DNA of 32,000 bases from Candidatus Methylomirabilis oxygeniifera (GCA_000091165.1 FP565575.1:2130001-2162000), one strand, 5' to 3'. Shown: positions 2,846 through 14,480, counted from the stretch's first letter. Notes: generated from the sequence alone by a model not told the origin. A program made the numbers and translations.

Positions 2846-5044
2846 CTACCATCCAAGACCATCTTTCCCCTTATCATCCAGCTTCGGCGCAAGTCCTGAT
2901 GGGGAGGTCGGCGACGATTGCATCAGCCGCTCCAGCGTTTCAACACGCTCCCTGAACCGCTTCGTGAGTGCCTGACCCTCCTCCGGCGAGGCAATGACGT
3001 GCGGCGTGATCAGGATAACCAGCTCAGTCCGAATCAGATCCTCGGATGTGTTCCGGAAGAGATAGCCAAGCAGCGGGATCGTGCTGAGAAACGGGATGCC
3101 GCTATAGCCTTTCGACTTGTCGGTTCGGATGATCCCACCGATCACCAGTGACTGACTGTCCTGAACAACGAGGGCCGTCTTAGTAGTCGTCTTGTTGAAA
3201 GAGGCACCGCCCTGAAGAGCATCCGGAACCTCGCCAGCAACACTCGTATTTTCTGTCTCAATGTCCAGGGTGACCAATCGTTTCTCATTGACGTGTGGTT
3301 TGATCTTCAGGATAATCCCAATGTCCTTGCGCTGAAATGTGCTGAAAACATTGGCGACATCGCTGGTCCCTACACTCTGTGTTCCGGTCGGAATCGGCAC
3401 CTCCTGGCCGATTTGAATGTTGGCCTCCTTGTTATTGGCGGTCAACAGGTGGGGGTTGGCTAACACCTCCACCTTGGTCACAGATGCCAGGTTGTTCAAC
3501 ACCAGGCGGAACTGTTCCTTGTCCACGAAGGTCGTAAATGTAAATCCGGAGGGCGGCGCTACTCCACTCGGGTTCTTGAAGGCAGCAATCGCTGCGGCCG
3601 CGGGACCGCCGTGGACACTCGACAGCATGATTGTCCCAGACCTCAACACCTGCTCAAGACTGAAATCGAAAGCATCGCTCAACGTGATCTGCGCCAGCAT
3701 CAGCTCGATCAAGACCTGTTTCGGGACGATATCGAGCTGCTTGATCGTGGCCTCGACGATTTCGTAGTTGCGCGGCGAGGTCTTGATGATCAACGCATTG
3801 GTTGCCTCGTCTGTAACGATGGTCACCTCGCCTACGACTTCTCCAGGCGCTGCCTCGGCACCGGTCGGCGGCACGGGGGCGGCGGGCGGCGGACCCGGGG
3901 CCGGCGGGGGTGGAGCAGTGGTTGTCGACGGTCCGCTCACGCCGGGTCTTGCGGGAGTCTGGCCCGGTCGAGTGCCAGGCGCTGCGCCCCGCACGAGATC
4001 TCGGCGACCGTACAGCGTATTCAGAGTATTTGCCAGGTCGGCAGCCTTCGCGTTCTCGACAAAGTAGACAAAGATCCGCTGGATATTATCGCGTTTGGTC
4101 GGGACATCGAGCGCCTTGATCGTTTCGAGTATCCGTTTGAGCGTAGAGTTGAAGCCGGCGATGATCAGGGAGTTGGTCTCCTTGTGGACGATCATCCTGG
4201 CGCCTTTACCTATCAACGACTGGACAATCTTTGAGGTCTCGTCGGCGGACAGATAGTCGAGCTGGACGACTTGGGTGGAATACCGCTCACGTTCCTCAAT
4301 GCGCTCTTTCCCTACCTGCACATCCTGCGGTTCCTGCTGGGCGACGGCGATCGGAACAATCTTGTAGTAGGAACCCTCCTTCACCGCCGCCAGGTTATTG
4401 ACTTCCAGTACAGACTCCATGATAGACAGAACTTCGCTGGACGGCACTCGAGTTGTCGTCCGCATCGTCACATTCGCCTTAACGCCGGGACCGATAATAA
4501 AATTGATCCGAGTAATGTCGGCGATGGATCGGAGGACCAACTCTAAATCGGCGTTGTCGAAGTTCAATGAGACGTACTGCGGCGCTTCAGGCTGTGGCGG
4601 CACTCCTCTCCCAGCCACACCAGGGCGCGCTCCTAATCCCGCCGAAGGGACAGGCGCGCCTTCCATCATTCCGGCCGATGGTACGGGAACAGGTTGAATC
4701 CCTATTTCCTTGGAGGGAGCGCCGCCTTCGGCCTCTTCGCTCTCTTCGGCGTCTTCTCCGCCGCCTTCGGCCTCTTCGCTCTCTTCGGCGTCTTCTCCGC
4801 CGCCTTCGGCCTCTTCCGCTTCCAGCTTCGACTCAACCTTTTCCGAACGCGCAGGCAGTGCGGCGACGACCGGAGCAGCAGGTGGAGGCGTTGGCGCTAT
4901 GGTCTCAGCCTTCAAAGGCGCCAGTTCCGCTTCAGCCCCGGAACGTCCAAACGTCTGCAGGGCGGTACAAGCGGGAAGGAATACCGCGACCGTTAAAACT
5001 ATAAGAAGAGCTCTTCGGGTAACCAATACTCTCTCCTTCCTCAT
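2846..5044 (-). CDS. gspD: type II secretion system secretin GspD (possible lipoprotein secretin)
   Basis: 732 aa. The secretin C-domain is recognisable (VLANPHLLTANNKEANIQIGQEVP ... GIPFLSTIPLLGYLFR), with N0-N3-like domains upstream. The N-terminus VAVFLPAC is lipobox-like. An alternative TTG start at 5026 has a better RBS (AAGGAG). Confidence 0.95.
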   Translation of the reverse strand: MRKERVLVTRRALLIVLTVAVFLPACTALQTFGRSGAEAELAPLKAETIAPTPPPAAPVVAALPARSEKVESKLEAEEAEGGGEDAEESEEAEGGGEDAEESEEAEGGAPSKEIGIQPVPVPSAGMMEGAPVPSAGLGARPGVAGRGVPPQPEAPQYVSLNFDNADLELVLRSIADITRINFIIGPGVKANVTMRTTTRVPSSEVLSIMESVLEVNNLAAVKEGSYYKIVPIAVAQQEPQDVQVGKERIEERERYSTQVVQLDYLSADETSKIVQSLIGKGARMIVHKETNSLIIAGFNSTLKRILETIKALDVPTKRDNIQRIFVYFVENAKAADLANTLNTLYGRRDLVRGAAPGTRPGQTPARPGVSGPSTTTAPPPPAPGPPPAAPVPPTGAEAAPGEVVGEVTIVTDEATNALIIKTSPRNYEIVEATIKQLDIVPKQVLIELMLAQITLSDAFDFSLEQVLRSGTIMLSSVHGGPAAAAIAAFKNPSGVAPPSGFTFTTFVDKEQFRLVLNNLASVTKVEVLANPHLLTANNKEANIQIGQEVPIPTGTQSVGTSDVANVFSTFQRKDIGIILKIKPHVNEKRLVTLDIETENTSVAGEVPDALQGGASFNKTTTKTALVVQDSQSLVIGGIIRTDKSKGYSGIPFLSTIPLLGYLFRNTSEDLIRTELVILITPHVIASPEEGQALTKRFRERVETLERLMQSSPTSPSGLAPKLDDKGKDGLGW
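4721..4816. repeat. 39-bp tandem repeat, about 2.5 copies, inside gspD
   Basis: Units 4721-4759 and 4760-4798 are identical, with a partial third unit to 4816. On the coding strand they encode EAEGGGEDAEESE x2.5, an acidic linker after the signal peptide. Confidence 0.95.
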
Positions 5045-5083: not shown

Positions 5084-5719
5084 TTACTGCTCCCCCTTCG
5101 TTGCTCGCTCCGCCGCTCTTCGCTGACGCATCTCCAGCCGCTCCTGCCTGCGTCTCTCAATCTCTCCGCTGTCGGGAGCCCCGGACTGAACGGCGACAGG
5201 CGCTGGCACATTGGCGGGAGTCGCGGCAGCAGACTCAATGGCCGCCTTTAGGGTAATCTCACGTACCGTCTCGCCGCGCTTGAAGATAACTCGATCCTCC
5301 TTAATTTCGGTAACGATCCCACCTGCCACCTCTTGACCTGTTGTATAGATATTCGCTTTTCCTTTATCGCTCAGGATGGCTCGACGCTCGTGGTCGACCA
5401 GAATGGTGCCGACTAGTGTCGGGAGAGGCGGCGGCGGCGGCGGAGCGCTGGACGGTTGTACCGGCATAGGCGGAGGCTGTTTGAATGGGTTCCTCTCTAA
5501 AAGAATATCGAACTGCGCCAACGGTGGGCGAGCGGTCGAGTTATAGGCGACAGCTTCTGCCTCTTGCAACGACCGTTTGGCAACCGGGCTTTGAATCGGG
5601 ACATCAGGAGCAACCCACGTCTTCGCGAGAGCCGCCGTGATCAGCACCGCAATGAGACCTAAAAGGAGGTTCAGTAGTCTAAGGGGGTTACGCACCGGCG
5701 CTTTTTTCCTCCAGTCCAA
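5084..5719 (-). CDS. GspC/PilP-like inner-membrane secretin-coupling protein
   Basis: 211 aa. It has one N-terminal TM helix (LLNLLLGLIAVLITAAL), a Pro-rich linker and a beta-rich domain (LVGTILVDHERRAILSDKGKANIYTTGQEVAGGIVTEIKEDRVIFKRG) typical of GspC-HR/PilP. It sits between gspM and gspD. The start (TTG 5719 or GTG 5695) is uncertain. Confidence 0.6.
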   Translation of the reverse strand: MDWRKKAPVRNPLRLLNLLLGLIAVLITAALAKTWVAPDVPIQSPVAKRSLQEAEAVAYNSTARPPLAQFDILLERNPFKQPPPMPVQPSSAPPPPPPLPTLVGTILVDHERRAILSDKGKANIYTTGQEVAGGIVTEIKEDRVIFKRGETVREITLKAAIESAAATPANVPAPVAVQSGAPDSGEIERRRQERLEMRQRRAAERATKGEQ

Positions 5720-6260
5720 GGGTATAGCCGCTAACTACAACGGTTACCTGCAACTCGGCGCCAATCCTTGGAAAAGAGGCGTTGACCTGGAGCTTGGGAA
5801 CGGTAAGCAGCTTTGAAGCACTCTCGATCTTGTACAGGAAATCACGGAGTTTCTTCAAGTCGGCGTTCAGAGAAAGTTCCACAGCGACCCGCGTAAATCC
5901 CTCCGCCTTGCTTGGCGCATGGATACTCTCGCTAACGATGGTCACTCCGCTCTCTCCGGCCATTTTGTGCAACATGGTCTGAAGATCGGCCGCTGCTAGC
6001 GTCAACTTCTCTCCTGGCAACAGTCGTTGTTGCAGTTGCTTGTACAACCCTTCCGTCTCGGCGAATTTCTTCTCGTATCGTCTCTTCCCATCCACTACCA
6101 GTTGGAAGCGTTCAAAAGCCTGAAGCTTTTCCTGATAGTCGTTTCGAACCGCCACCTGGTTTGAGATGGCTGGGATGATAGCGTAACTAATGATAAGGAA
6201 AGCAACTAAGGCGGCTCCACCACCCACGAGAAACCGACGCTCTCGAGAAGAGAAGGTCAC
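5688..6260 (-). CDS. gspM: type II secretion system protein GspM (PilO-like)
   Basis: 190 aa bitopic protein with an N-terminal TM helix, a coiled coil and a ferredoxin-like C-domain. GTG start overlaps the gspL stop (GTGA). Confidence 0.65.
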   Translation of the reverse strand: MTFSSRERRFLVGGGAALVAFLIISYAIIPAISNQVAVRNDYQEKLQAFERFQLVVDGKRRYEKKFAETEGLYKQLQQRLLPGEKLTLAAADLQTMLHKMAGESGVTIVSESIHAPSKAEGFTRVAVELSLNADLKKLRDFLYKIESASKLLTVPKLQVNASFPRIGAELQVTVVVSGYTLGLEEKSAGA

Positions 6261-7732
6261 GGCCGCTTCTCCTTCGCTCCGGCTCCTCGATTGCGCTCAG
6301 AGCTCGGTACAGATCTGGTCTCAAGGAGCGCCTTCAGTTGAAACTCTTGCCCCTCGGCGCCTCGCTGGGCCACCGGCGAGGTAAATTGGGCGTTTTCGAA
6401 GAGGGGAGACTGCTCCAGAATCGAGATCAAATCCGAGGCGGAACCGGGGATTGTGCCGCCGATCCGGGCTTCCCGTTTCTCGACTGAGAAGAGTGTCAGC
6501 ACCACTCCTTTCGGCAAGATTTGAACCAGTTCGCGCAACACGTCCAGCTTTCTGGTCTCATCCTGATCAATAGTCTGCAAGGTAGCGATCTGGTTTGCAA
6601 GCGTACCGACCTCACCCTTGAGCTGTTCCACCTTGGCCGCCTCAGTCTGTACGCGATGAAGTCTGGCGGTAAGATCGGCGAGATCTCGGCGCTCTCGAAT
6701 CGCACCATTCACCAGAAACACTAACCCCAGGGCGATAATAAGGGCCAAGAGCCGGAAGGTCATAGCGCGGTTCGGGTCTCGGCGAGGGGGAGCCAACTCT
6801 TTGGGGAGCAGATCGATATCGATCGGGAGCGGGACAAGTCCGTGCAGTCCAAGTCCGACGGCCGCCCCAAGGGAATGGACTGTCTGCGGATCTACGTTGT
6901 TGGCCTTAATCCGTCGGAAGGGGTGGAGGAACTCTACCTCAAGACCGGTCTGTTCAGCCAGGTGATGCAGCAGGTCTCCCTTGCCTGCACCCGTCCCAGA
7001 GAGAGAAATTCGTCCTGCACGCTCTCCGCCATCCACTTCAAGCTGGCCGACCAGTGCGGAAAGCTCCGAGACAAGCCGATCAAGCGGCGCAGCCTGACCA
7101 ATAGCAAAGTATTTAGTATATCGCAGGATCCCCTTGTTGGCCAGACCCAACTCCACCTCGCCGTTCCGAAGATCAATGACGGCCCTCAGGGATTCCGCGC
7201 CTCGCTCCTGGTTATAGAGGAGGGCGTTGAGTGACGCGAACGTCGAGACGCCAAGAGCGGTTGGCGTGATCCCCGCCTCCTGCAGTAGAGCGACGTGTCG
7301 ACCGATCTCCTCTTTTCTCGTTGCGGCCAACAGGACAGTAGCCTGTTCGGCATCGTGTGTCAGTACCTGAAAGTCGTACTGCGCCTCCTCAAGGGGGAAC
7401 GGAACATGTCGTTCAATCTCATAGTCCACGATCCCCTTCATTTCCTCTTTACCCACCGCCGGCATGCTGACCGAGCGCATAGTAACGAGACGCCGCGGCA
7501 GGCCGAGCGTTATGGAGGTGGGACGCTTGGGTAACCGAGTCACGAGGCCGGCCAGCCTCTCTTTAAGCACTCCCAGCCTGTCCTTCTCTTCAGCCGGTAA
7601 CGTCTCGATACCCCAATCGAGGAGCTGAATTCGCCCAAACGCCTTACTCAATAAGGCGTGACACAGTAGCCCACCCCGAATGTCGATACCCAAGCCGACT
7701 TTCGGTCTCGGGATCAGCTCATCGAGCTTCAT
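6257..7732 (-). CDS. gspL: type II secretion system protein GspL (PilM-like cytoplasmic domain + TM + PilN-like domain)
   Basis: 491 aa. An actin-like N-domain is followed by the TM helix FRLLALIIALGLVFLV and a periplasmic coiled-coil domain. The ATG overlaps the gspK stop (ATGA). Confidence 0.8.
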   Translation of the reverse strand: MKLDELIPRPKVGLGIDIRGGLLCHALLSKAFGRIQLLDWGIETLPAEEKDRLGVLKERLAGLVTRLPKRPTSITLGLPRRLVTMRSVSMPAVGKEEMKGIVDYEIERHVPFPLEEAQYDFQVLTHDAEQATVLLAATRKEEIGRHVALLQEAGITPTALGVSTFASLNALLYNQERGAESLRAVIDLRNGEVELGLANKGILRYTKYFAIGQAAPLDRLVSELSALVGQLEVDGGERAGRISLSGTGAGKGDLLHHLAEQTGLEVEFLHPFRRIKANNVDPQTVHSLGAAVGLGLHGLVPLPIDIDLLPKELAPPRRDPNRAMTFRLLALIIALGLVFLVNGAIRERRDLADLTARLHRVQTEAAKVEQLKGEVGTLANQIATLQTIDQDETRKLDVLRELVQILPKGVVLTLFSVEKREARIGGTIPGSASDLISILEQSPLFENAQFTSPVAQRGAEGQEFQLKALLETRSVPSSERNRGAGAKEKRP

Positions 7733-8895
7733 ACACCCCCCTGCCTCGGATCAAGGCTCCACAGACGCACGGAGAGTTTCGGTCGGCCGGACGTCCCCTC
7801 ATTTCGCAGGATGGCAGCTATACGAACCGTGAGCCTCGATCCCGTCATCCGCGCAACCGATTCGACCGAAAAATTCGATGAGGTAGCTTTGACAAGTGGA
7901 CCAAGACTGGCGCGGACTTGGCTCTGGCTATCGCGCCCCGACAAACCTGCGCAGCCGGCAGAAGTAAAGAGAACAGTGAGTTGTCCCACCGCATCTCCAC
8001 GAAATGGCTCCCCTGTCCGCCGGCTGAGGACACACTTCGTCTCTACGGCCGTCAGCCCAAGCGCCATCAACACGTCCGGACTTGCCGTATTGATATTCAC
8101 CTGACCGGTGCTATGGAGCGACAGGTGCTGCGCCACTCCAAGGTATTCGCCCGGCTTGAGATCCCGTTCCCACGGTAGCCGGGCTTCAAGCTCCGTCCGT
8201 CGTGGTTGGCTGGCAATATTGCCGTACAGGATTTCCTGGGTTAATCCTCTGATCAGGAGTAGTTCATCGATAGTTTCGAAGCCTCCGTTCTTCGCTCGGT
8301 ACGAGCTGGGGAGGGATAGGTAGTAGTCGTCCTCGGCGCCGCTCATACGATGAAGGTTATCGGTATCTCGCCAGTCCTGAATTGAATCAACGATAGTGGA
8401 CAGAAGCTTCTCATCCCTGACACCTGAGTTGGAAAACAATCGACGAAGCATCGCATCGTATTGGGGAGTTATCTGCCCATCCAGGGGAATCTTGCTCTCC
8501 TCATCCCTGACCGCTACCCAGTAATGTCCGCCGCCTAATGCCACGTTCTCATAGGCAGCCGGATTGGTATGCCAGCGCTCATTTAGAGCATCGTAGCTCT
8601 TCGAGTCGGGCGGGAGATCTCGATCGGCGTTGATGATCTCCGCAGCCGCCCGGTAAATGCCGGCCTCTGCCAAATAGTACGCCTCCGCTTTCTGTTTGAA
8701 GTTGCCCGCCGCAGCCAGCTCTGTACGCATCGAAAAGGTAAAGGTCGTAAATACGACACCTAGAAATGCCAGAATCCAGAGCACGACCACAAGCGCCAAT
8801 CCGCACTCACCAAAAAAAGAGGGTGTGGGGTGTGGGGTGTGGGGTGTGGGACCGAAAACTTGACGCTTGACGCTTGACGCTTGACGCTTCTTCAT
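7729..8895 (-). CDS. gspK: type II secretion minor pseudopilin GspK
   Basis: 388 aa. It has the GspK-type N-terminus G|LALVVVLWILAFLG, the DEESKIPL motif and a large C-domain. The only in-frame start upstream of the cleavage-type Gly is ATG 8895, which overlaps the gspJ stop. Confidence 0.85.
   Translation of the reverse strand: MKKRQASSVKRQVFGPTPHTPHPTPSFFGECGLALVVVLWILAFLGVVFTTFTFSMRTELAAAGNFKQKAEAYYLAEAGIYRAAAEIINADRDLPPDSKSYDALNERWHTNPAAYENVALGGGHYWVAVRDEESKIPLDGQITPQYDAMLRRLFSNSGVRDEKLLSTIVDSIQDWRDTDNLHRMSGAEDDYYLSLPSSYRAKNGGFETIDELLLIRGLTQEILYGNIASQPRRTELEARLPWERDLKPGEYLGVAQHLSLHSTGQVNINTASPDVLMALGLTAVETKCVLSRRTGEPFRGDAVGQLTVLFTSAGCAGLSGRDSQSQVRASLGPLVKATSSNFSVESVARMTGSRLTVRIAAILRNEGTSGRPKLSVRLWSLDPRQGGV
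8821..8850. repeat. heptanucleotide tandem array (GGGTGTG)x4.3
   Basis: Read directly: gggtgtg gggtgtg gggtgtg gggtgtg gg. On the coding strand this is (CCCACAC)n, encoding PTPHTPHPTP in the GspK leader. Confidence 0.95.
8859..8889. repeat. heptanucleotide tandem array (CTTGACG)x4.4
   Basis: Read directly: cttgacg x4 + ctt. On the coding strand this is (AAGCGTC)n, encoding KRQASSVKRQ at the extreme 5' end of gspK. Confidence 0.95.
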
Positions 8896-9731
8896 AACGT
8901 TCGTCCCACCTGTATCGGAAGGACCAGCGGCGGAAGGATCAACTCCCGAATCTCCCGCGATCTCGTCTGCCGAATCGTGAGAGTGAGCTCAACAGCCAAC
9001 GGTAAGCGATTAGAACCCTTCAAGGCGCGCAGACTAGAGGGAGATGGAACGATTCGAGATGGGGGAACAAGCATATCGTCCCTTGAAGGGTCCCACGAAT
9101 CGTGCCATGCGGGGGGGAGGTTTTCCTCCGACCTACCCTCCGGCACAAGGTACCGGAAACGTACCTCCGATATCCGCTCGTCAAGCAGTTTAGCCTGACC
9201 ATCAAGTACAGCCGATGTCGAACCAGCCAGGGGGTAGCTTGTCGTCGCCACCAGTCCCCGATCAGACTCCACAGTATAGCTCACGATTCTGACCATGTGG
9301 CTGAATGGCTCAGCCCCATAGATCTGCGGAAGGGTGGCGAATTCAAGAGAGTCGGATTTACCATGAAAGACCATGACATCCTTATCCTGCTCTTTCACGC
9401 GCAACGGGTAGATCATCGTCAGGTCTCGCGCCAGGGTATCGACAAGAGTACGATTACGCTGGCTCTCTTCCGCTCGCGCCTCCCCACCTTCCCACGATTT
9501 AACACCAATCTGGATAGCCCCCAGTACAGCAACGAAGATCAGGGCGACGATCGTCAGGGAGATCAGAAGCTCAAGCAGCGTAAACCCGGCTTCGCCGGAC
9601 GGCTCCGAGTGTTGAGTGTTGAGTGTTGAGTGTTGAGTTCGTAACTCGAAATGGTCTTCACTTAACACTTGGCACTTAACACTTAACACGTTCTTATTGG
9701 ACGACACGCGTCTGTCCCAACTTCTTTTCAT
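8892..9731 (-). CDS. gspJ: type II secretion minor pseudopilin GspJ
   Basis: Prepilin motif G|FTLLELLISLTIVALIF followed by a GspJ-size body. There is no in-frame start between the repeat arrays and the motif. Candidate starts are ATG 9731 (overlaps the gspI 3' end) or GTG 9689 (4 nt after the gspI stop). Confidence 0.8.
   Translation of the reverse strand: MKRSWDRRVSSNKNVLSVKCQVLSEDHFELRTQHSTLNTQHSEPSGEAGFTLLELLISLTIVALIFVAVLGAIQIGVKSWEGGEARAEESQRNRTLVDTLARDLTMIYPLRVKEQDKDVMVFHGKSDSLEFATLPQIYGAEPFSHMVRIVSYTVESDRGLVATTSYPLAGSTSAVLDGQAKLLDERISEVRFRYLVPEGRSEENLPPAWHDSWDPSRDDMLVPPSRIVPSPSSLRALKGSNRLPLAVELTLTIRQTRSREIRELILPPLVLPIQVGRTL
9607..9638. repeat. heptanucleotide tandem array (GAGTGTT)x4.6
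   Basis: Read directly. On the coding strand this is (ACTCAAC)n, encoding TQHSTLNTQHS immediately upstream of the GspJ prepilin cleavage motif. Confidence 0.95.
9659..9689. repeat. heptanucleotide tandem array (CACTTAA)x4.4 (second unit CACTTGG)
   Basis: Read directly. On the coding strand this is (GTGTTAA)n, encoding VLSVKCQVLS. It is an inverted copy (6 of 7 per unit) of the 9607-9638 array. Confidence 0.95.
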
Positions 9732-10224
9732 CTACTATCATTCTCAAGGTCTGTAGATTCACAGCCTTCTCTCCACGGCGGCCAGGCCAAGTCACGCGCA
9801 CCTTGACGCTGAAGAGCCGACCGGGAAGTTCCTCCGGTTGTTCGAGCGGCTGGATCTCCGACGCCCAACGGAATCCCCCACCGAACTCTCCTGCCTCGCC
9901 GGTGCTCGCAAGATTCCGCGCTGCGGCAACCTCGGCTATTTTCTGTCGAGCCAGCAGGACTGCTTGAGTGTACTCTTCGGACGCCTTCGCAGAGCGAACC
10001 CCAGCGACTAACAGTTCCACGGCCAGAGCAAACCCGACGCCAAGAATAGCCAAAGCGACGATAACTTCCAGTAACGTAAAACCGTGCGAGGTGCGACAAG
10101 AGCGGTAGGGAGTCCGAAGTGCGGGATCCAAGGTACAACGCGCCCCGAACCTCAAATCTCCCCGTTCCCCCCATTTGTAAATGGGGAGTCGGAGGATGTT
10201 GCACCTGGAACGATTCTCACGCAT
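9694..10224 (-). CDS. gspI: type II secretion minor pseudopilin GspI (start uncertain)
   Basis: Prepilin motif SHG|FTLLEVIVALAILGVG followed by a body of about 125 aa. The track ORF (to 10392) overlaps gspH and is too long. ATG 10224 overlaps the gspH stop by 8 nt and gives a 47-aa leader. In-frame TTG codons at 10155 and 10131 are alternatives. Confidence 0.7.
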   Translation of the reverse strand: MRENRSRCNILRLPIYKWGERGDLRFGARCTLDPALRTPYRSCRTSHGFTLLEVIVALAILGVGFALAVELLVAGVRSAKASEEYTQAVLLARQKIAEVAAARNLASTGEAGEFGGGFRWASEIQPLEQPEELPGRLFSVKVRVTWPGRRGEKAVNLQTLRMIVDEKKLGQTRVVQ

Positions 10225-10801
10225 TCTCTGCGGAACTGATGCGAACGAGCCCAACCGATGGATCCACAATAATTCGATAGCTTCGCCCTTTCTCATCGGA
10301 AAGGTCGATCGATCCACCCGTCGAACTCCCCTGCGGGAAGAAGGCGATGACGCCACGCTCATCAGGTAAAAGGGGACCAGTGGCGAGGACAACGGACTTC
10401 AGGCTTACGCCTGGCGGGAGGGAGCGAACCCGAGCCTGTCGAATCTGAGCCTGCCAAGGCTGTTCGGGGTCTTCCACCGTCTCCACCCGGTCTATACTGC
10501 TGAGACGCCCGACAATCCAGTCCGGACCTCTGAGCCAATAGCGATTGGTCTGTCGGTCGAGCACCACCTCCAATATATCCTGATTGGCGATCGCCTGCGT
10601 TCTGGCAAACCGACAGAGGGTCATAATATCCCTCGTCGCAGCCTTGAGCTGAGTCTGTCCGAATGATCGGCTGAAGGCCGGCGCAACGAGCACGGTTGCC
10701 AGCATAAGGATGAATAGGACGACGGTAAGCTCGAGGAGCGTGAATCCCCTCGTGCATTGTACTGTTCTATTGTTCAGCCTGGCTTCCCGCTTGTTTGACA
10801 C
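10217..10801 (-). CDS. gspH: type II secretion minor pseudopilin GspH
   Basis: 194 aa. Leader (GTG)SNKREARLNNRTVQCTRG|FTLLELTVVLFILMLA, followed by a GspH-like beta domain. Confidence 0.8.
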   Translation of the reverse strand: MSNKREARLNNRTVQCTRGFTLLELTVVLFILMLATVLVAPAFSRSFGQTQLKAATRDIMTLCRFARTQAIANQDILEVVLDRQTNRYWLRGPDWIVGRLSSIDRVETVEDPEQPWQAQIRQARVRSLPPGVSLKSVVLATGPLLPDERGVIAFFPQGSSTGGSIDLSDEKGRSYRIIVDPSVGLVRISSAENA

Positions 10802-11216
10802 TCTTCCAACTCACAACATCCTGATTCTCTCCGTCACCACCCGCTACGCCATCACCGCCATACGAGACAATATCGTAATCTCCATGCTCTCCTGGCGCCT
10901 TATAGGCATAGGCGTGAGTCCACGGATCAACGGGAAGCTCTTGTTTTTTCAGATAGGGACCATCCCAGTTCTCGACCCCGCCTGGATTCACGAGAAGTGC
11001 CCTCAGCCCTTCGTCGCTAGTCGGGTACCGACCAACGTCCAGTCGAAAATTGTCCAGGGCGGCGCCGAACAGTTCAATCTGAGCTTGTGCAGCCGCTTGC
11101 TTACCCTTTCCCACCCTGCCAAAAAGCTTCGGGCCCACTAAGGCCGCCAACAAGCCGATAATGATGATAACAACCAGCAACTCGATAAGGGTGAACCCAG
11201 CCTGATTACGGCGCAA
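10767..11216 (-). CDS. gspG: type II secretion major pseudopilin GspG
   Basis: FTLIELLVVIIIIGLLAALVGPK ... NWDGPYL ... DPW is the GspG signature. TTG 11216, 7 nt after GGGAGG, gives the canonical leader MRRNQAG|F. Longer alternatives are GTG 11273 and TTG 11279 (track ORF). Confidence 0.9.
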   Translation of the reverse strand: MRRNQAGFTLIELLVVIIIIGLLAALVGPKLFGRVGKGKQAAAQAQIELFGAALDNFRLDVGRYPTSDEGLRALLVNPGGVENWDGPYLKKQELPVDPWTHAYAYKAPGEHGDYDIVSYGGDGVAGGDGENQDVVSWKSVKQAGSQAEQ

Positions 11217-11339
11217 GGTCCGGCCTCCCGCTTCCTGCCATATCCGGATATCTTTAACCCGTCGAATGTCCACACTCAACTCCTTTTATTTGGATCCGCA
11301 CTCCATCTCTACGTCGCTTTCGTACCTCACACACCGTGC

Positions 11340-12566
11340 TTAGAGCGGGAGTTCATTGATACTGAAGATGGCAAGCAGCATCGACAGCACAATGAACCCG
11401 ACGACAAGCCCAAGAAAGAGGATCAGGATCGGCTCAAGCAGTGAAGTCAGGCGCTTGACTGTCCGCCGCACACGCTCGTCATAGGTATCGGCGACCTTGA
11501 TCAGCATCTCCTCGAGTTTTCCCGTCTCTTCCCCTACCTTCGCCATATGGATGGAAAAGGACGGAAAGGCGGCGGTAGCCCGCAGTGGGCCGCTGATCCC
11601 TTCGCCCCGTTTTACCCCCTCCTGTAACCTGGACATGGCGGCAACAATGACTCGATTCGCGATCGTCTCCTTGACGATAGAAACAGCCGCGAGTACCGGG
11701 ACCCCGCTTTGGAGAAGCGTCCCGAATGTCCTGGCAAAACGAGAGACCTCGATCTCCTGAATCAGGCGACCCAACAGAGGGAGCGACAATTTCAACTGAT
11801 CCCACTGCACCTTCCCCTGGTCAGTCTGTAAATAGACTCGAAACCCGATTCCAACAAGGCCAATCAGCCCCACAAATACCCACCAGTAACCGGTCGTGAA
11901 CGCGCTGATCGCCAAAAGTATCCTCGTCGGCAGCGGCATAAGCTGCTTCGTGTCTGAGAAGATCTGAGCAAACCGTGGGATCACGAAGTTCATCATGACC
12001 ACCACAGCACCGCCACCAACGAAGAGCAATAGAATCGGATAGATGAGGGCCGATGTTACTTCGTCCCGTACCGCCTTTGAGCGCTCCATAAACCCGGCCA
12101 GCCGTGAGAGGATCACCTCCAACACACCACTTGCCTCCCCAGCCTTGACCATATTGATGTACAGCCTGGAGAAAAGTCGTGGGTGTTTGGCCAGACCGTC
12201 GGCGAATGAATTACCCGCCTGGATATCAGTCAGAATGCTGCGAAGAATCGATCGAAACCGTTGGTTGTCGGTCAGGTCCAACAGAATCGCCAGACTCCGA
12301 TCCAACTCCATCCCGGCCTCGAGCAATGTCGCGAGCTGTTGCGTGAAGGCCAGAACATCCTGGGCAGATGGTCCCCTGGCAAACGTAGTCGGGAGCCGAG
12401 CAGCACTCGGTCTGACCTCCATTGTGCTACCGGGCTGTCCGATCTTGATCGGATAGTAACCGTTAGCTCTGAGCCAAGCCACGACCGCCCGCTCATCGGC
12501 AGCCTCCATGCTACCATGGACGATCTTGGCGGTACGATCAGTGGCGGTATATTGAAATGTCCCCAT
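11340..12566 (-). CDS. gspF: type II secretion inner-membrane platform protein GspF
   Basis: 408 aa with a duplicated GspF/PilC domain and three TM segments. Confidence 0.95.
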   Translation of the reverse strand: MGTFQYTATDRTAKIVHGSMEAADERAVVAWLRANGYYPIKIGQPGSTMEVRPSAARLPTTFARGPSAQDVLAFTQQLATLLEAGMELDRSLAILLDLTDNQRFRSILRSILTDIQAGNSFADGLAKHPRLFSRLYINMVKAGEASGVLEVILSRLAGFMERSKAVRDEVTSALIYPILLLFVGGGAVVVMMNFVIPRFAQIFSDTKQLMPLPTRILLAISAFTTGYWWVFVGLIGLVGIGFRVYLQTDQGKVQWDQLKLSLPLLGRLIQEIEVSRFARTFGTLLQSGVPVLAAVSIVKETIANRVIVAAMSRLQEGVKRGEGISGPLRATAAFPSFSIHMAKVGEETGKLEEMLIKVADTYDERVRRTVKRLTSLLEPILILFLGLVVGFIVLSMLLAIFSINELPL

Positions 12567-12613
12567 ACGCAGATGCTGTCTTTATTGACACCGAATAGCG
12601 CGGTAGGTTTACG

Positions 12614-12641
12614 ACTATAGCAACTAGCGATGCGCTGTCAA
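12614..12641 (-). promoter_or_regulatory. sigma70-like promoter upstream of gspF
   Basis: Minus strand reads TTGACA (12641-12636), a 16-nt spacer, then TATAGT (12619-12614). It lies about 48 nt upstream of the gspF ATG, inside the 192-nt gspE-gspF gap. Confidence 0.45.
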
Positions 12642-12649
12642 CACAAATC

Positions 12650-12699
12650 GGGCTCTACAAGTTGCGCAAATGGTTCGAAAAATAAAGCAGATAGAGCCC
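12650..12699 (-). terminator. 8-bp stem (GGGCTCTA/TAGAGCCC) with a 34-nt loop downstream of gspE; weak terminator or processing candidate
   Basis: Perfect 8-bp inverted repeat at 12650-12657 / 12692-12699, 60 nt after the gspE stop and just upstream of the gspF promoter. The loop is long and no clean U-run follows. Confidence 0.25.
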
Positions 12700-12758
12700 C
12701 TCCTATCCGCTGTGTTGATGAAGAGAGCATACGATCTCGCATCACGAAGTGACCCTAC

Positions 12759-14480
12759 TTACGCCTCCTCTTTCGTGACCCGCAGCAGGTCCTCTACTGT
12801 AGTCACTCCCTGCTCAACTTTCATCCAACCATCTTCCCACAGGGTATTCATCCCAAAAGCTATCGCCTTCTGCCGAATCGTATTCGAGTCGGCCTTCTCC
12901 AGAATCAGTCGTTGAATCTCTTCATTGATTGCCAAAAACTCGTAGATGCCGCTGCGCCCATGGTATCCGGTAAAATTGCAGGCGGCGCATCCTTTACCAC
13001 GAAACACCTGCAGCGCTCCATCGACTGCGGTTTTGATCCCCATTTTCCGAACCGCAGCCGCATCCAACCGGTACGGCTCCCGGCACTCGGGGCAGATGAC
13101 GCGAACCAGACGTTGAGCCAGGACCGCCACGAGGACGCTGGATACCAGGTAGTTTTCGATGCCCATATCCAGGAGCCGCGTGATGGCGCCGGGTGCATCG
13201 TTCGTGTGCAGCGTGCTGAACACCAGATGCCCGGTCAGCGCGGAGTGGATGGCGATGTCCGCGGTCTCTGCATCGCGGATCTCCCCAACCATGATAATGT
13301 CTGGATCCTGACGAACGATGGAGCGTAGGCCGCTGGCGAAGGTCAGACCGATCTTGGCCTTGACATGGATCTGGTTGACTCCCTGGAGCTGGTACTCCAC
13401 CGGGTCCTCAATCGTAATAATCTTCTTGTCGGCCGAGTTGATCTCGCTCAACGCCGTATAGAGGGTCGTCGTTTTGCCGCTTCCTGTCGGACCAGTCACC
13501 AGGATCATGCCATGCGGCTTTCTGATAAGCCGCTGGAATTGTAGGCGAATATCTTCGGGCATGCCCATGTCTCCTAGGCTCAGGAGAAGACTGCTACGAT
13601 CCAGGATTCGCATCACCACGCTCTCACCGTGTAGTGTGGGAACCGTGGAAACTCGGAGATCCAGGTCCTTGCCTAGGATCTGGAGCCTGATTCGTCCGTC
13701 CTGTGGAAGCCGTCGCTCGGCAATGTTCATCTTGGCCATGATCTTGACACGAGAGATCACGGCCCGTTGCAGCCGCTTGGGAGGAGACTCCTGGTCCAGC
13801 AGTACTCCATCGACCCGGTAGCGGATTCGAAATGTATCCTCGAACGGCTCAATATGTATGTCGCTGGCGCGGGCCTCTACCGCCCGGGTGATGAGCAGAT
13901 TGACAAGCTGGATGACTGGGGCCTCGGAGGCCAGATCGCGAAGGTGATCAACATCCTCGCGATCCTCGCCGGATCCTCCACCCTCCTCCTCGCTGTACCC
14001 CTTGACGATCTTCTCGATCGTTGTCTGACCATCACCATAATACTGGTCGATCGCCTCAATGATCTCCCGCTCGTTAGCGATACAGACGGTGATAGCGAGC
14101 CCGGTACTCAGTCGAAGATCATCCAGCGTATACGGATCGGTCAGATCGCTCATGGCAACGGTCAGCGTCCCATCCTTCATCTCAATCGGGAAGACCTTGT
14201 GCTCACGCAGGTACTTCGGCGACACCCGATCTCGGATCGGCACAGGTGTAATCGAGAGAGAGGCAAGAGAAAGGTAGGGAAGCGAATACTGCTTGGCGAG
14301 GGCCTTTGCCACGTCCTCATCGGAGGCATATCCAAGCTCTACGAGAGTCTCGCCCAACCGCTTGCCGATTTCCCGCTGGTGACTCAGCCCACGCTGGAGC
14401 TGCTCTCGAGTGACGGAACCCTCACGGATCAGGATTTCGCCGATCGGTTCACGTACTTCGCCGGCTTGCCGACTGCTCAT
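12759..14480 (-). CDS. gspE: type II secretion ATPase GspE with an MshEN-type N-terminal domain
   Basis: 573 aa. Walker A GPTGSGKTT, Asp/His boxes, and a tetracysteine CPEC...CAAC zinc motif. The N-terminus carries two 24-residue MshEN-like motifs. Confidence 0.95.
   Translation of the reverse strand: MSSRQAGEVREPIGEILIREGSVTREQLQRGLSHQREIGKRLGETLVELGYASDEDVAKALAKQYSLPYLSLASLSITPVPIRDRVSPKYLREHKVFPIEMKDGTLTVAMSDLTDPYTLDDLRLSTGLAITVCIANEREIIEAIDQYYGDGQTTIEKIVKGYSEEEGGGSGEDREDVDHLRDLASEAPVIQLVNLLITRAVEARASDIHIEPFEDTFRIRYRVDGVLLDQESPPKRLQRAVISRVKIMAKMNIAERRLPQDGRIRLQILGKDLDLRVSTVPTLHGESVVMRILDRSSLLLSLGDMGMPEDIRLQFQRLIRKPHGMILVTGPTGSGKTTTLYTALSEINSADKKIITIEDPVEYQLQGVNQIHVKAKIGLTFASGLRSIVRQDPDIIMVGEIRDAETADIAIHSALTGHLVFSTLHTNDAPGAITRLLDMGIENYLVSSVLVAVLAQRLVRVICPECREPYRLDAAAVRKMGIKTAVDGALQVFRGKGCAACNFTGYHGRSGIYEFLAINEEIQRLILEKADSNTIRQKAIAFGMNTLWEDGWMKVEQGVTTVEDLLRVTKEEA

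Follow-up and report, generated by a model that had tools for sequence, protein, structure and literature searches.

The window analysed here is a 32-kb stretch of the genome of Ca. Methylomirabilis oxyfera (Candidatus, phylum NC10), whose minus strand encodes a type II secretion system (T2SS) operon, with T2SS J, K, G, PilM/N-L and the secretin matched by Pfam. Within this operon, the 5' end of the pseudopilin gene gspJ contains two inverted arrays of tandem heptamers, which we interpret, with a probability of roughly 55%, as a foldback repeat that resembles the intervening sequences (IVSs) of 23S rRNA genes, lacks an open reading frame (ORF) of its own, lodges in the cleavable leader of a prepilin and is kept open and in frame by selection, without a dedicated host function.

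Read along the minus strand, the gspI stop codon (TAA, 9694-9696) lies 4 nt ahead of the mRNA-proximal 5' arm of the repeat, (GTGTTAA)x4.4 (9659-9689), whose third unit is GTGCCAA. A 20-nt spacer, translated as EDHFELR, forms the loop (9639-9658) and is followed by the mRNA-distal 3' arm, (ACTCAAC)x4.6 (9607-9638), translated as TQHSTLNTQHS, and by a segment without a start codon (9585-9606) that codes for the end of the leader, EPSGEA, and for the G (9585-9587) of the cleavage motif G/FTLLE, where the slash marks the cleavage site. Tandem Repeats Finder (TRF) reports the same arrays on the plus strand as (GAGTGTT)x4.6 at 9607-9638, with 100% matches, and (CACTTAA)x4.4 at 9659-9689, with 83% matches. 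Apart from these and two arrays in the neighbouring gspK gene, no period-7 run in the whole 32 kb reaches 17 nt, and the chance expectation for perfect 30-nt period-7 runs is ~1e-9 per window at a per-base match probability of 0.256.

The 3' arm is the reverse complement of the 5' arm save for one T-to-C change per unit. On the plus strand, 9609-9638 pairs with 9660-9689 as an uninterrupted 30-bp helix of 24 Watson-Crick and six G-T(U) pairs with zero mismatches, whereas the same pairing on the minus (mRNA) strand contains 24 Watson-Crick pairs and six A-C mismatches. Folded as RNA, the plus strand reaches a minimum free energy of -44.2 kcal/mol (z -6.2; 0 of 200 shuffles as good), against -26.0 kcal/mol (z -3.3) for the minus strand; with DNA parameters the values are -20.6 and -14.7 kcal/mol, respectively. 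A preliminary description of this locus had proposed folding both strands, and what it said of the position and copy number of the gspJ arrays, of their near-inverted relationship and of perfect pairing on the plus strand only is borne out in full by TRF and by explicit pairing.

The ORF that contains the arrays (8892-9731, minus strand) encodes 279 residues with 100% identity to a Ca. Methylomirabilis protein, and includes a PF07963 match at residues 46-70 and a PF11612 (T2SSJ) match at residues 100-256. As in other prepilins, the leader ends in G, followed by F/V-T-L-L-E and a hydrophobic helix (PF07963), but it spans 40-48 residues vs the usual 6-10, the leader of the array-free NC10 locus L001 having 9. 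The two candidate start codons, GTG at 9705-9707 (the start of database protein P0001) and ATG at 9729-9731, are both upstream of the arrays, and no in-frame ATG, GTG or TTG is found between the second array and G/FTLLE, so that this array must be translated, as had been deduced before. Tandem GTGTTAA read in frame meets TAA at the seventh codon, and the deviant third unit makes precisely that codon CAA; an exactly complementary second arm would read ACTTAAC and contain a TAA, but the one present reads ACTCAAC. Because the T-to-C changes in both arms remove TAA, all six wobbles of the plus-strand helix fall on frame-opening changes.

The arrangement recurs among related loci. When metagenomes were scanned with GspJ truncated to its conserved C-terminal portion, 38 NC10 loci were recovered, and a scan of genome contigs with a full-length GspJ alignment, although dominated by the generic GFTLLELL prepilin motif, added one, for a total of 39. 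In most of these loci TRF detects heptamer-array pairs in the 5' regions of almost all pseudopilin genes (gspG to gspK), with arrays at 26/39 gspJ, 18/27 gspI, 13/22 gspH and 5/14 gspG junctions; outside pseudopilin leaders, no heptamer array of at least three copies was found by TRF in ~250 kb of NC10 loci. The distance from the upstream stop to the first array has a median of 10 nt, is often 1 nt and ranges from 1 to 15 nt; in many loci, where the upstream TAA overlaps an ATG, the array opens at the G of this ATG. The gspK arrays of relatives fall somewhere between codon ~3 and the conserved ERG/LALMVVLW.

The sequence that occupies this position is far from constant. Strains whose mature-coding DNA is 94-99% identical carry unlike unit families and lengths, with cassettes (an array pair and its loop) as short as ~60 nt and as long as ~220 nt among near-identical strains. 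The unit families number four or more, including GTTTCGA/AACCCGA, GTTCCAG/AACCCGG and GTGCGAA/CGCACCC, and the same families recur at different junctions of one genome; heptad iterons, that is, sequence-specific DNA-binding sites, were ruled out on the ground that units differ between the junctions of one genome. An apical GC hairpin, GGGGCGACCCGCCGGGTCGCCCC (motif GGGGCGACCCG), is read as VGATRRVAPT or RGDPPGRPYT by junction, the motif being in the VGATR frame 8 times and in the RGDP frame 4 times; since the same DNA is read in different frames, there is no peptide constraint on the cassette. The preliminary description had named absence of the arrays from close relatives as a finding that would tell against it: this absence is seen in L001, L101, L113, L114 and L117, whose operon is intact, whereas most relatives do carry arrays, of other sequences. 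Taken together, the pattern fits a dispensable, mutable and recombining DNA element and not a conserved regulator or a functional peptide.

Several other repeats were noted at these junctions. The L081 J/I, L083 J, L112 I/J and L117 I/K leaders contain, at the same leader position, a non-heptamer foldback of a C-run and a G-run, translated as PHPPxLPLGGGxxGG or PPTPPLQKGGTGG. In L100 (1690-1829), L095 (413-538) and L116 (114-231), in-frame higher-order repeats of 28, 39 and 42 nt, made of heptamer units, give leaders of up to ~120 residues. Heptamer arrays just upstream of prepilin motifs are also found in Desulfobacterota and Acidobacteria loci, either untranslated (L002) or translated (gspK leader of L030), and the arrays that directly precede pseudopilin genes in the T2SS operons of Desulfobacterota loci L045 (10014-10060), L055 (9032-9064) and L069 (9134-9163) are Shine-Dalgarno-like (AAGGTRG or AAAGGTA, repeated). 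A protein search with leader peptides only, aimed at cassettes in other gene families, returned one weak match.

Conservation of the reading frame was assessed at 67 array-bearing G, H, I and J junctions of the NC10 loci. In 65 of them the arrays leave the true frame open, vs 31 and 41 for the two alternative frames; 60 have a start codon at or upstream of the first array, and 61 have none after the last (an example of the predicted translation of the arrays is TQHSTLNTQHSEPSGEA). At the J/K junction, copy number differs among relatives by exactly 3 units (21 nt), and the gspK frame is preserved in all complete cases. Programmed frameshifting and ribosome bypassing are ruled out by this conserved frame. 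Out-of-frame junctions amount to 1-2 of the 67, in consensus assemblies: compared with L097 gspH (1225-1347), L098 gspH (209-341) has 24 nt more in the apical loop and 14 nt less in the arrays (one double heptamer unit) and is out of frame, which makes it the sole clear candidate for an off allele, or else an assembly error.

These figures bear on whether the arrays form a contingency locus, in which slipped-strand mispairing within heptamers, seven not being a multiple of three, would toggle pseudopilin genes, for example to evade phages that use the pseudopilus. Phase variation of pilC proceeds through repeats in the region that codes for its signal peptide, a precedent with which heptamers of strain-variable copy number in a 5' coding region agree, as does the one apparently genuine out-of-frame allele in L098. 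We nevertheless consider such switching improbable, given that 65/67 junctions are in frame, that array length is modest, at 4-5 units in the window, that switching five genes of a single operon would be redundant, and that inverted complementarity, cargo genes of the PF05635 family (described below) and untranslated copies are left unexplained. The N-terminally truncated homologues P0011, P0104 and P0108, annotated as beginning past the G/F motif and considered as OFF alleles, were rejected: their leaders are open in frame and their annotated starts are gene-calling artefacts, which also counts against a switch.

The bias towards pairing on the antisense strand extends beyond the window. Among 42 distinct two-array translated NC10 cassettes, the antisense strand folds better in 40 (mean -65.8 vs -51.6 kcal/mol for the sense strand), and long-range G-U pairs number 231 in antisense vs 56 in sense; at array-free junctions it is usually the sense strand that folds better, by up to 24 kcal/mol. 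Nine untranslated array pairs at PF05635 genes outside NC10 have 40 G-U pairs in sense vs 29 in antisense, with the sense strand stabler in most, and the untranslated first arm of L110, GTGCGGG, is the perfect partner of CGCACCC, where translated first arms read GTGCGAA or GTGCGAG. Because untranslated arrays are unbiased and the wobbles of the window are TAA-removing changes, the asymmetry looks like a footprint of translation and not of antisense function, and we infer that selection on the mRNA strand accounts for the antisense-only pairing better than an antisense RNA does. Such selection would favour helix-breaking transitions in the mRNA (5' arm, G to A; 3' arm, T to C), whose expected effects are to remove stops, as in the window, to weaken start-proximal structure and to exchange codons for Gly, Phe and Leu for those of polar residues; seen from the opposite strand, these transitions would be G-U wobbles. 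Avoidance of stop codons as the general cause of the asymmetry was rejected: it holds for the window but fails for GTTTCGA/AACCCGA, where neither alternative unit contains a stop.

The gspK pair offers a second view of the same question. As the preliminary description had noticed, its layout is that of gspJ: past an ATGA in which the stop of gspJ and the start of gspK overlap (8892-8895, minus strand), an overlap that is kept in relatives with and without arrays, a first array, (CGTCAAG)x4.4 (8859-8889, minus strand; (CTTGACG)x4.4 by TRF on the plus strand), begins 6 nt past the ATG and is followed by a second, (CCACACC)x4.3 (8821-8850, minus strand; (GGGTGTG)x4.3 by TRF on the plus strand), translated as PTPHTPHPTP. 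As RNA, the pair folds, by way of G-U pairs, to -34.2 kcal/mol on the plus strand vs -8.0 kcal/mol on the mRNA strand, and under DNA parameters it does not fold (-2.5 kcal/mol, z +1.8). By calculation, an array made only of G and T pairs with a random heptamer array about one third of the time (at least 6/7 positions, wobble allowed), so that the plus-strand fold of gspK is weak evidence; with chance pairing at ~1/3 and the fold lost under DNA parameters, it was discounted as evidence.

The preliminary description had gone on to attribute any selected structure to an antisense transcript or a cruciform, and this attribution is not supported. An antisense RNA hairpin, or a plus-strand DNA cruciform or hairpin, as the functional molecule would account for perfect pairing of gspJ on the plus strand only, for the folding of gspK as plus-strand RNA only and for the stabler antisense strand of 40/42 cassettes. 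It would also have to accommodate a gspK pair that stays unfolded as DNA and that includes a G/T-only array prone to chance pairing, untranslated members of the element class that are unbiased, and wobbles in the window that stop-codon removal explains. Furthermore, no sigma-70-like promoter was found in 8500-10500 on either strand, by a consensus that may not be that of NC10, no terminator was found at the gspJ or gspK arrays on either strand, and no Rfam match was found at the arrays. On balance, we regard an antisense or cruciform function as very improbable.

A hairpin acting in the host mRNA itself, its stem opening at or shortly past the start codon that the upstream stop overlaps, deserves more weight, although we still hold it to be unlikely. 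By coupling termination to reinitiation, by stalling the terminating ribosome in the manner of repetitive extragenic palindromes (REPs), or as a barrier to RNase III or exonucleases, it would set the ratio of major to minor pseudopilins. The first array begins 1-15 nt past the upstream stop, in many cases with the G of the ATG as its first base, a position that suits this role, as do sense folds that are still very stable (mean -51.6 kcal/mol), an architecture that is kept while its sequence changes, and the fact that IVS stems are RNase III substrates (PMC4990558). However, several NC10 lineages have the same operon without arrays, the length varies from ~60 to 220 nt among near-identical strains, a cut by RNase III would part the start codon from its ORF, and the sense strand collects mismatches, which is the opposite of what a selected mRNA helix would do.

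What links the gsp cassettes to IVSs is a family of genes found inside some of them. In L092 (394-906) and L110 (385-954), a complete gene of the Avd-like PF05635 family, named for the 23S rRNA-intervening sequence protein (E-values 1e-25 and 5e-30, respectively), lies between the first and second gspG arrays, in frame with GspG; in the window, no PF05635 match was found. L046, a T2SS operon of Ratteibacteria, has a PF05635 gene (12367-12860) between (GACAGAG)x5.7 and (TCTGTCT)x5.4, right after the gspM stop. Eight more PF05635 loci were fetched, from WOR-3, Nitrospira (two genes), Acidobacteria (two loci), Chloroflexi and two unassigned metagenome contigs, and in all eight the gene is a co-oriented insert between operon genes, with inverted tandem repeats of period 7-9 within 130 nt. 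The inverted-repeat score beat all 30 shuffles in 7/9 PF05635 loci, and flanking inverted tandem 7-9-mers accompany 11/11 distinct PF05635 genes examined, from at least 6 phyla, each a co-oriented insert between genes of an operon, in host operons that include RtcB, carbon monoxide dehydrogenase/acetyl-CoA synthase (CODH/ACS), ilvBHC, glycosyltransferase and T2SS genes (loci L046, L122-L134).

The 23S rRNA IVS of Coxiella is a selfish element with an S23p ORF in its loop and a 28-bp stem, formed by terminal inverted repeats, that is cut by RNase III, and it contains 2-3 tandem heptamers (GACAGAT) whose number is strain-variable (PMC4990558). The unit of the L046 arrays, GACAGAG, is close to this Coxiella heptamer. 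No paper was found that extends the association of PF05635 with tandem repeats beyond Coxiella. A broader reading, which we advance as tentative, is that PF05635 genes and their ORF-less derivatives are widespread operon-invading foldback elements with stems of inverted tandem 7-9-mers, of which 23S IVSs would be just the special case resident in rRNA, and that in Methylomirabilota these elements have moved into coding sequence, where proteolysis instead of RNA excision neutralises them. If so, prepilin peptidase in L092 and L110 would free a whole PF05635 domain, cytoplasmic and encoded in frame with GspG.

Traces of similar inserts may persist in other leaders of the window. In gspG, the leader segment VDIRRVKDIRIWQEA (11229-11273, minus strand) is identical at 9/15 residues to the N-terminus of the PF05635 gene in the L092 gspG leader, and, judged by sequence, the gspG leaders of the window, L082, L101, L115 and L117 look like N-terminal remnants of a PF05635 gene (…IQRVEDIQAWQKA…). 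The gspI leader (10081-10200, minus strand) contains a small CCCCATTTACAAATGGGG hairpin and degenerate CGCACYT heptamers ahead of the cleavage motif (...ALRTPYRSCRTSH directly before GFTLLE), resembles the LRTSDFAPRTSH leaders of L084, L089 and L102, and appears to be a decayed cassette.

For the gspJ arrays themselves, the reading as an IVS-like repeat in a cleavable leader can be put as follows. The cassette consists of two inverted tandem-heptamer arrays around a short loop, placed directly past the upstream stop; because the stop and start codons of the operon overlap, it falls inside the next gene, where it has the start codon on one side and, on the other, the last ~6 codons ahead of the prepilin peptidase site. 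The ribosome is predicted to read through it, and the resulting peptide, periodic at 7 residues, to be lost on leader cleavage. By descent, the cassette may be an ORF-less relative of the selfish S23p/PF05635 foldback elements and kin to the paired inverted heptamers of Xanthomonas. Its arrays would grow and shrink by slippage, the cassette as a whole may move among paralogous leaders by recombination, and it presumably persists because a cleaved leader tolerates any open reading frame. As side effects, it would inevitably alter translation at the stop/start overlap, and an occasional frameshift could switch the gene off.

Several observations weigh against this reading. In sampled NC10 DNA the cassettes are confined to pseudopilin leaders and absent from ordinary intergenic spacers, a restriction that is not readily expected of a purely selfish element and would seem to need either a targeting mechanism or recombination between homologous prepilin 5' ends. 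The copy in the window has no PF05635 gene, so that the link to IVSs rests on relatives. Homogenisation of the arrays means that the antisense bias reflects just ~5-6 independent unit-level changes, and the reading accounts only in part for how few transversion mismatches the antisense strand contains.

The operon as a whole, all on the minus strand, comprises gspE (12759-14480), gspF (11340-12566), gspG (10767-11279), gspH (ending at 10217, its start not fixed, with a longest ORF of 10217-10801), gspI (ending at 9694), gspJ (8892-9731), gspK (7729-8895), a PilM/N-type gspL (6257-7732), gspM (5688-6260) and the secretin gene gspD (2846-5044). The last contains a perfect 39-nt tandem repeat, x2.5, with 13 codons per unit, at 4720-4816. 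The second gspK array, (GGGTGTG)x4.3 on the plus (template) strand at 8821-8850, has at least four GGG(G) runs separated by 3-nt loops, a canonical G-quadruplex motif, and on the mRNA strand is C/A-only and unstructured; G-quadruplexes of heptamers have been studied for the Xanthomonas and Nostoc repeats.

Prepilin leaders of 40-120 residues built from strain-variable translated repeats bear on how far prepilin peptidase and membrane targeting tolerate N-terminal extensions, and a selfish foldback that survives inside an ORF since the peptide it encodes is cut off afterwards would connect bacterial heptamer repeats, 23S rRNA IVSs and stand-alone PF05635/Avd-like genes, making the origin and spread of IVSs testable outside rRNA. 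For annotation, the practical consequence is that gene callers mis-start cassette-bearing genes, as with P0011, P0104 and P0108. The preliminary description had stated that no described T2SS has such a feature, and none was found in T2SS papers.

Among known systems, the 23S rRNA IVSs of Coxiella burnetii and Leptospira share with the cassettes a long stem of terminal inverted repeats (30 bp in gspJ), tandem heptamers at the end with strain-variable copies, and a sporadic occurrence among strains, and they are regarded as selfish and dispensable, as the gspJ cassette is here (PMC4990558). A PF05635 gene between the arrays is a further likeness in L092, L110 and nine other loci, unlike the copy in the window, which has no ORF. 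The IVSs differ in their site, helix 25 or 45 of 23S rRNA vs a protein-coding T2SS leader, and in their fate, being removed as RNA by RNase III, whereas the cassette would be removed as protein by prepilin peptidase. Xanthomonas has ~70 convergent heptamer-array pairs of unknown function, which are placed near the upstream ORF and differ among close relatives (PMC4692102). These repeats (GGGAATC) and the short tandemly repeated repetitive (STRR) sequences of cyanobacteria are alike in being tandem heptamers, often in inverted stem-loop pairs between co-oriented ORFs and nearer the end of the upstream one, and in varying widely in length and sequence among close relatives (PMC4692102). They are mostly intergenic and G-rich (G-quadruplex-forming), with one dominant genome-wide unit; the gsp cassettes, by contrast, comprise several unit families, occur in pseudopilin leaders only (in the sampled DNA) and lie within ORFs, with the frame kept.

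REPs and bacterial interspersed mosaic elements (BIMEs) resemble the cassettes in placing a hairpin just past a stop inside an operon. In work attributed to Liang, Rudd and Deutscher (2015) and to Newbury (1987), REPs within ~15 nt of a stop are said to act on the ribosome as it terminates and on how stable the mRNA is. Each REP is a single imperfect palindrome that goes untranslated; REPs number in the hundreds and are associated with REP-associated tyrosine transposases (RAYTs), points on which they would differ from the gsp cassettes. Contingency loci such as the poly-G tract of Neisseria pilC share a non-triplet repeat in a 5' coding part that is later cleaved off and whose copy changes can shift the frame; unlike them, the gsp cassettes have alleles that are nearly all in frame, come as complementary pairs, can hold a gene in the loop and occur as untranslated copies too.

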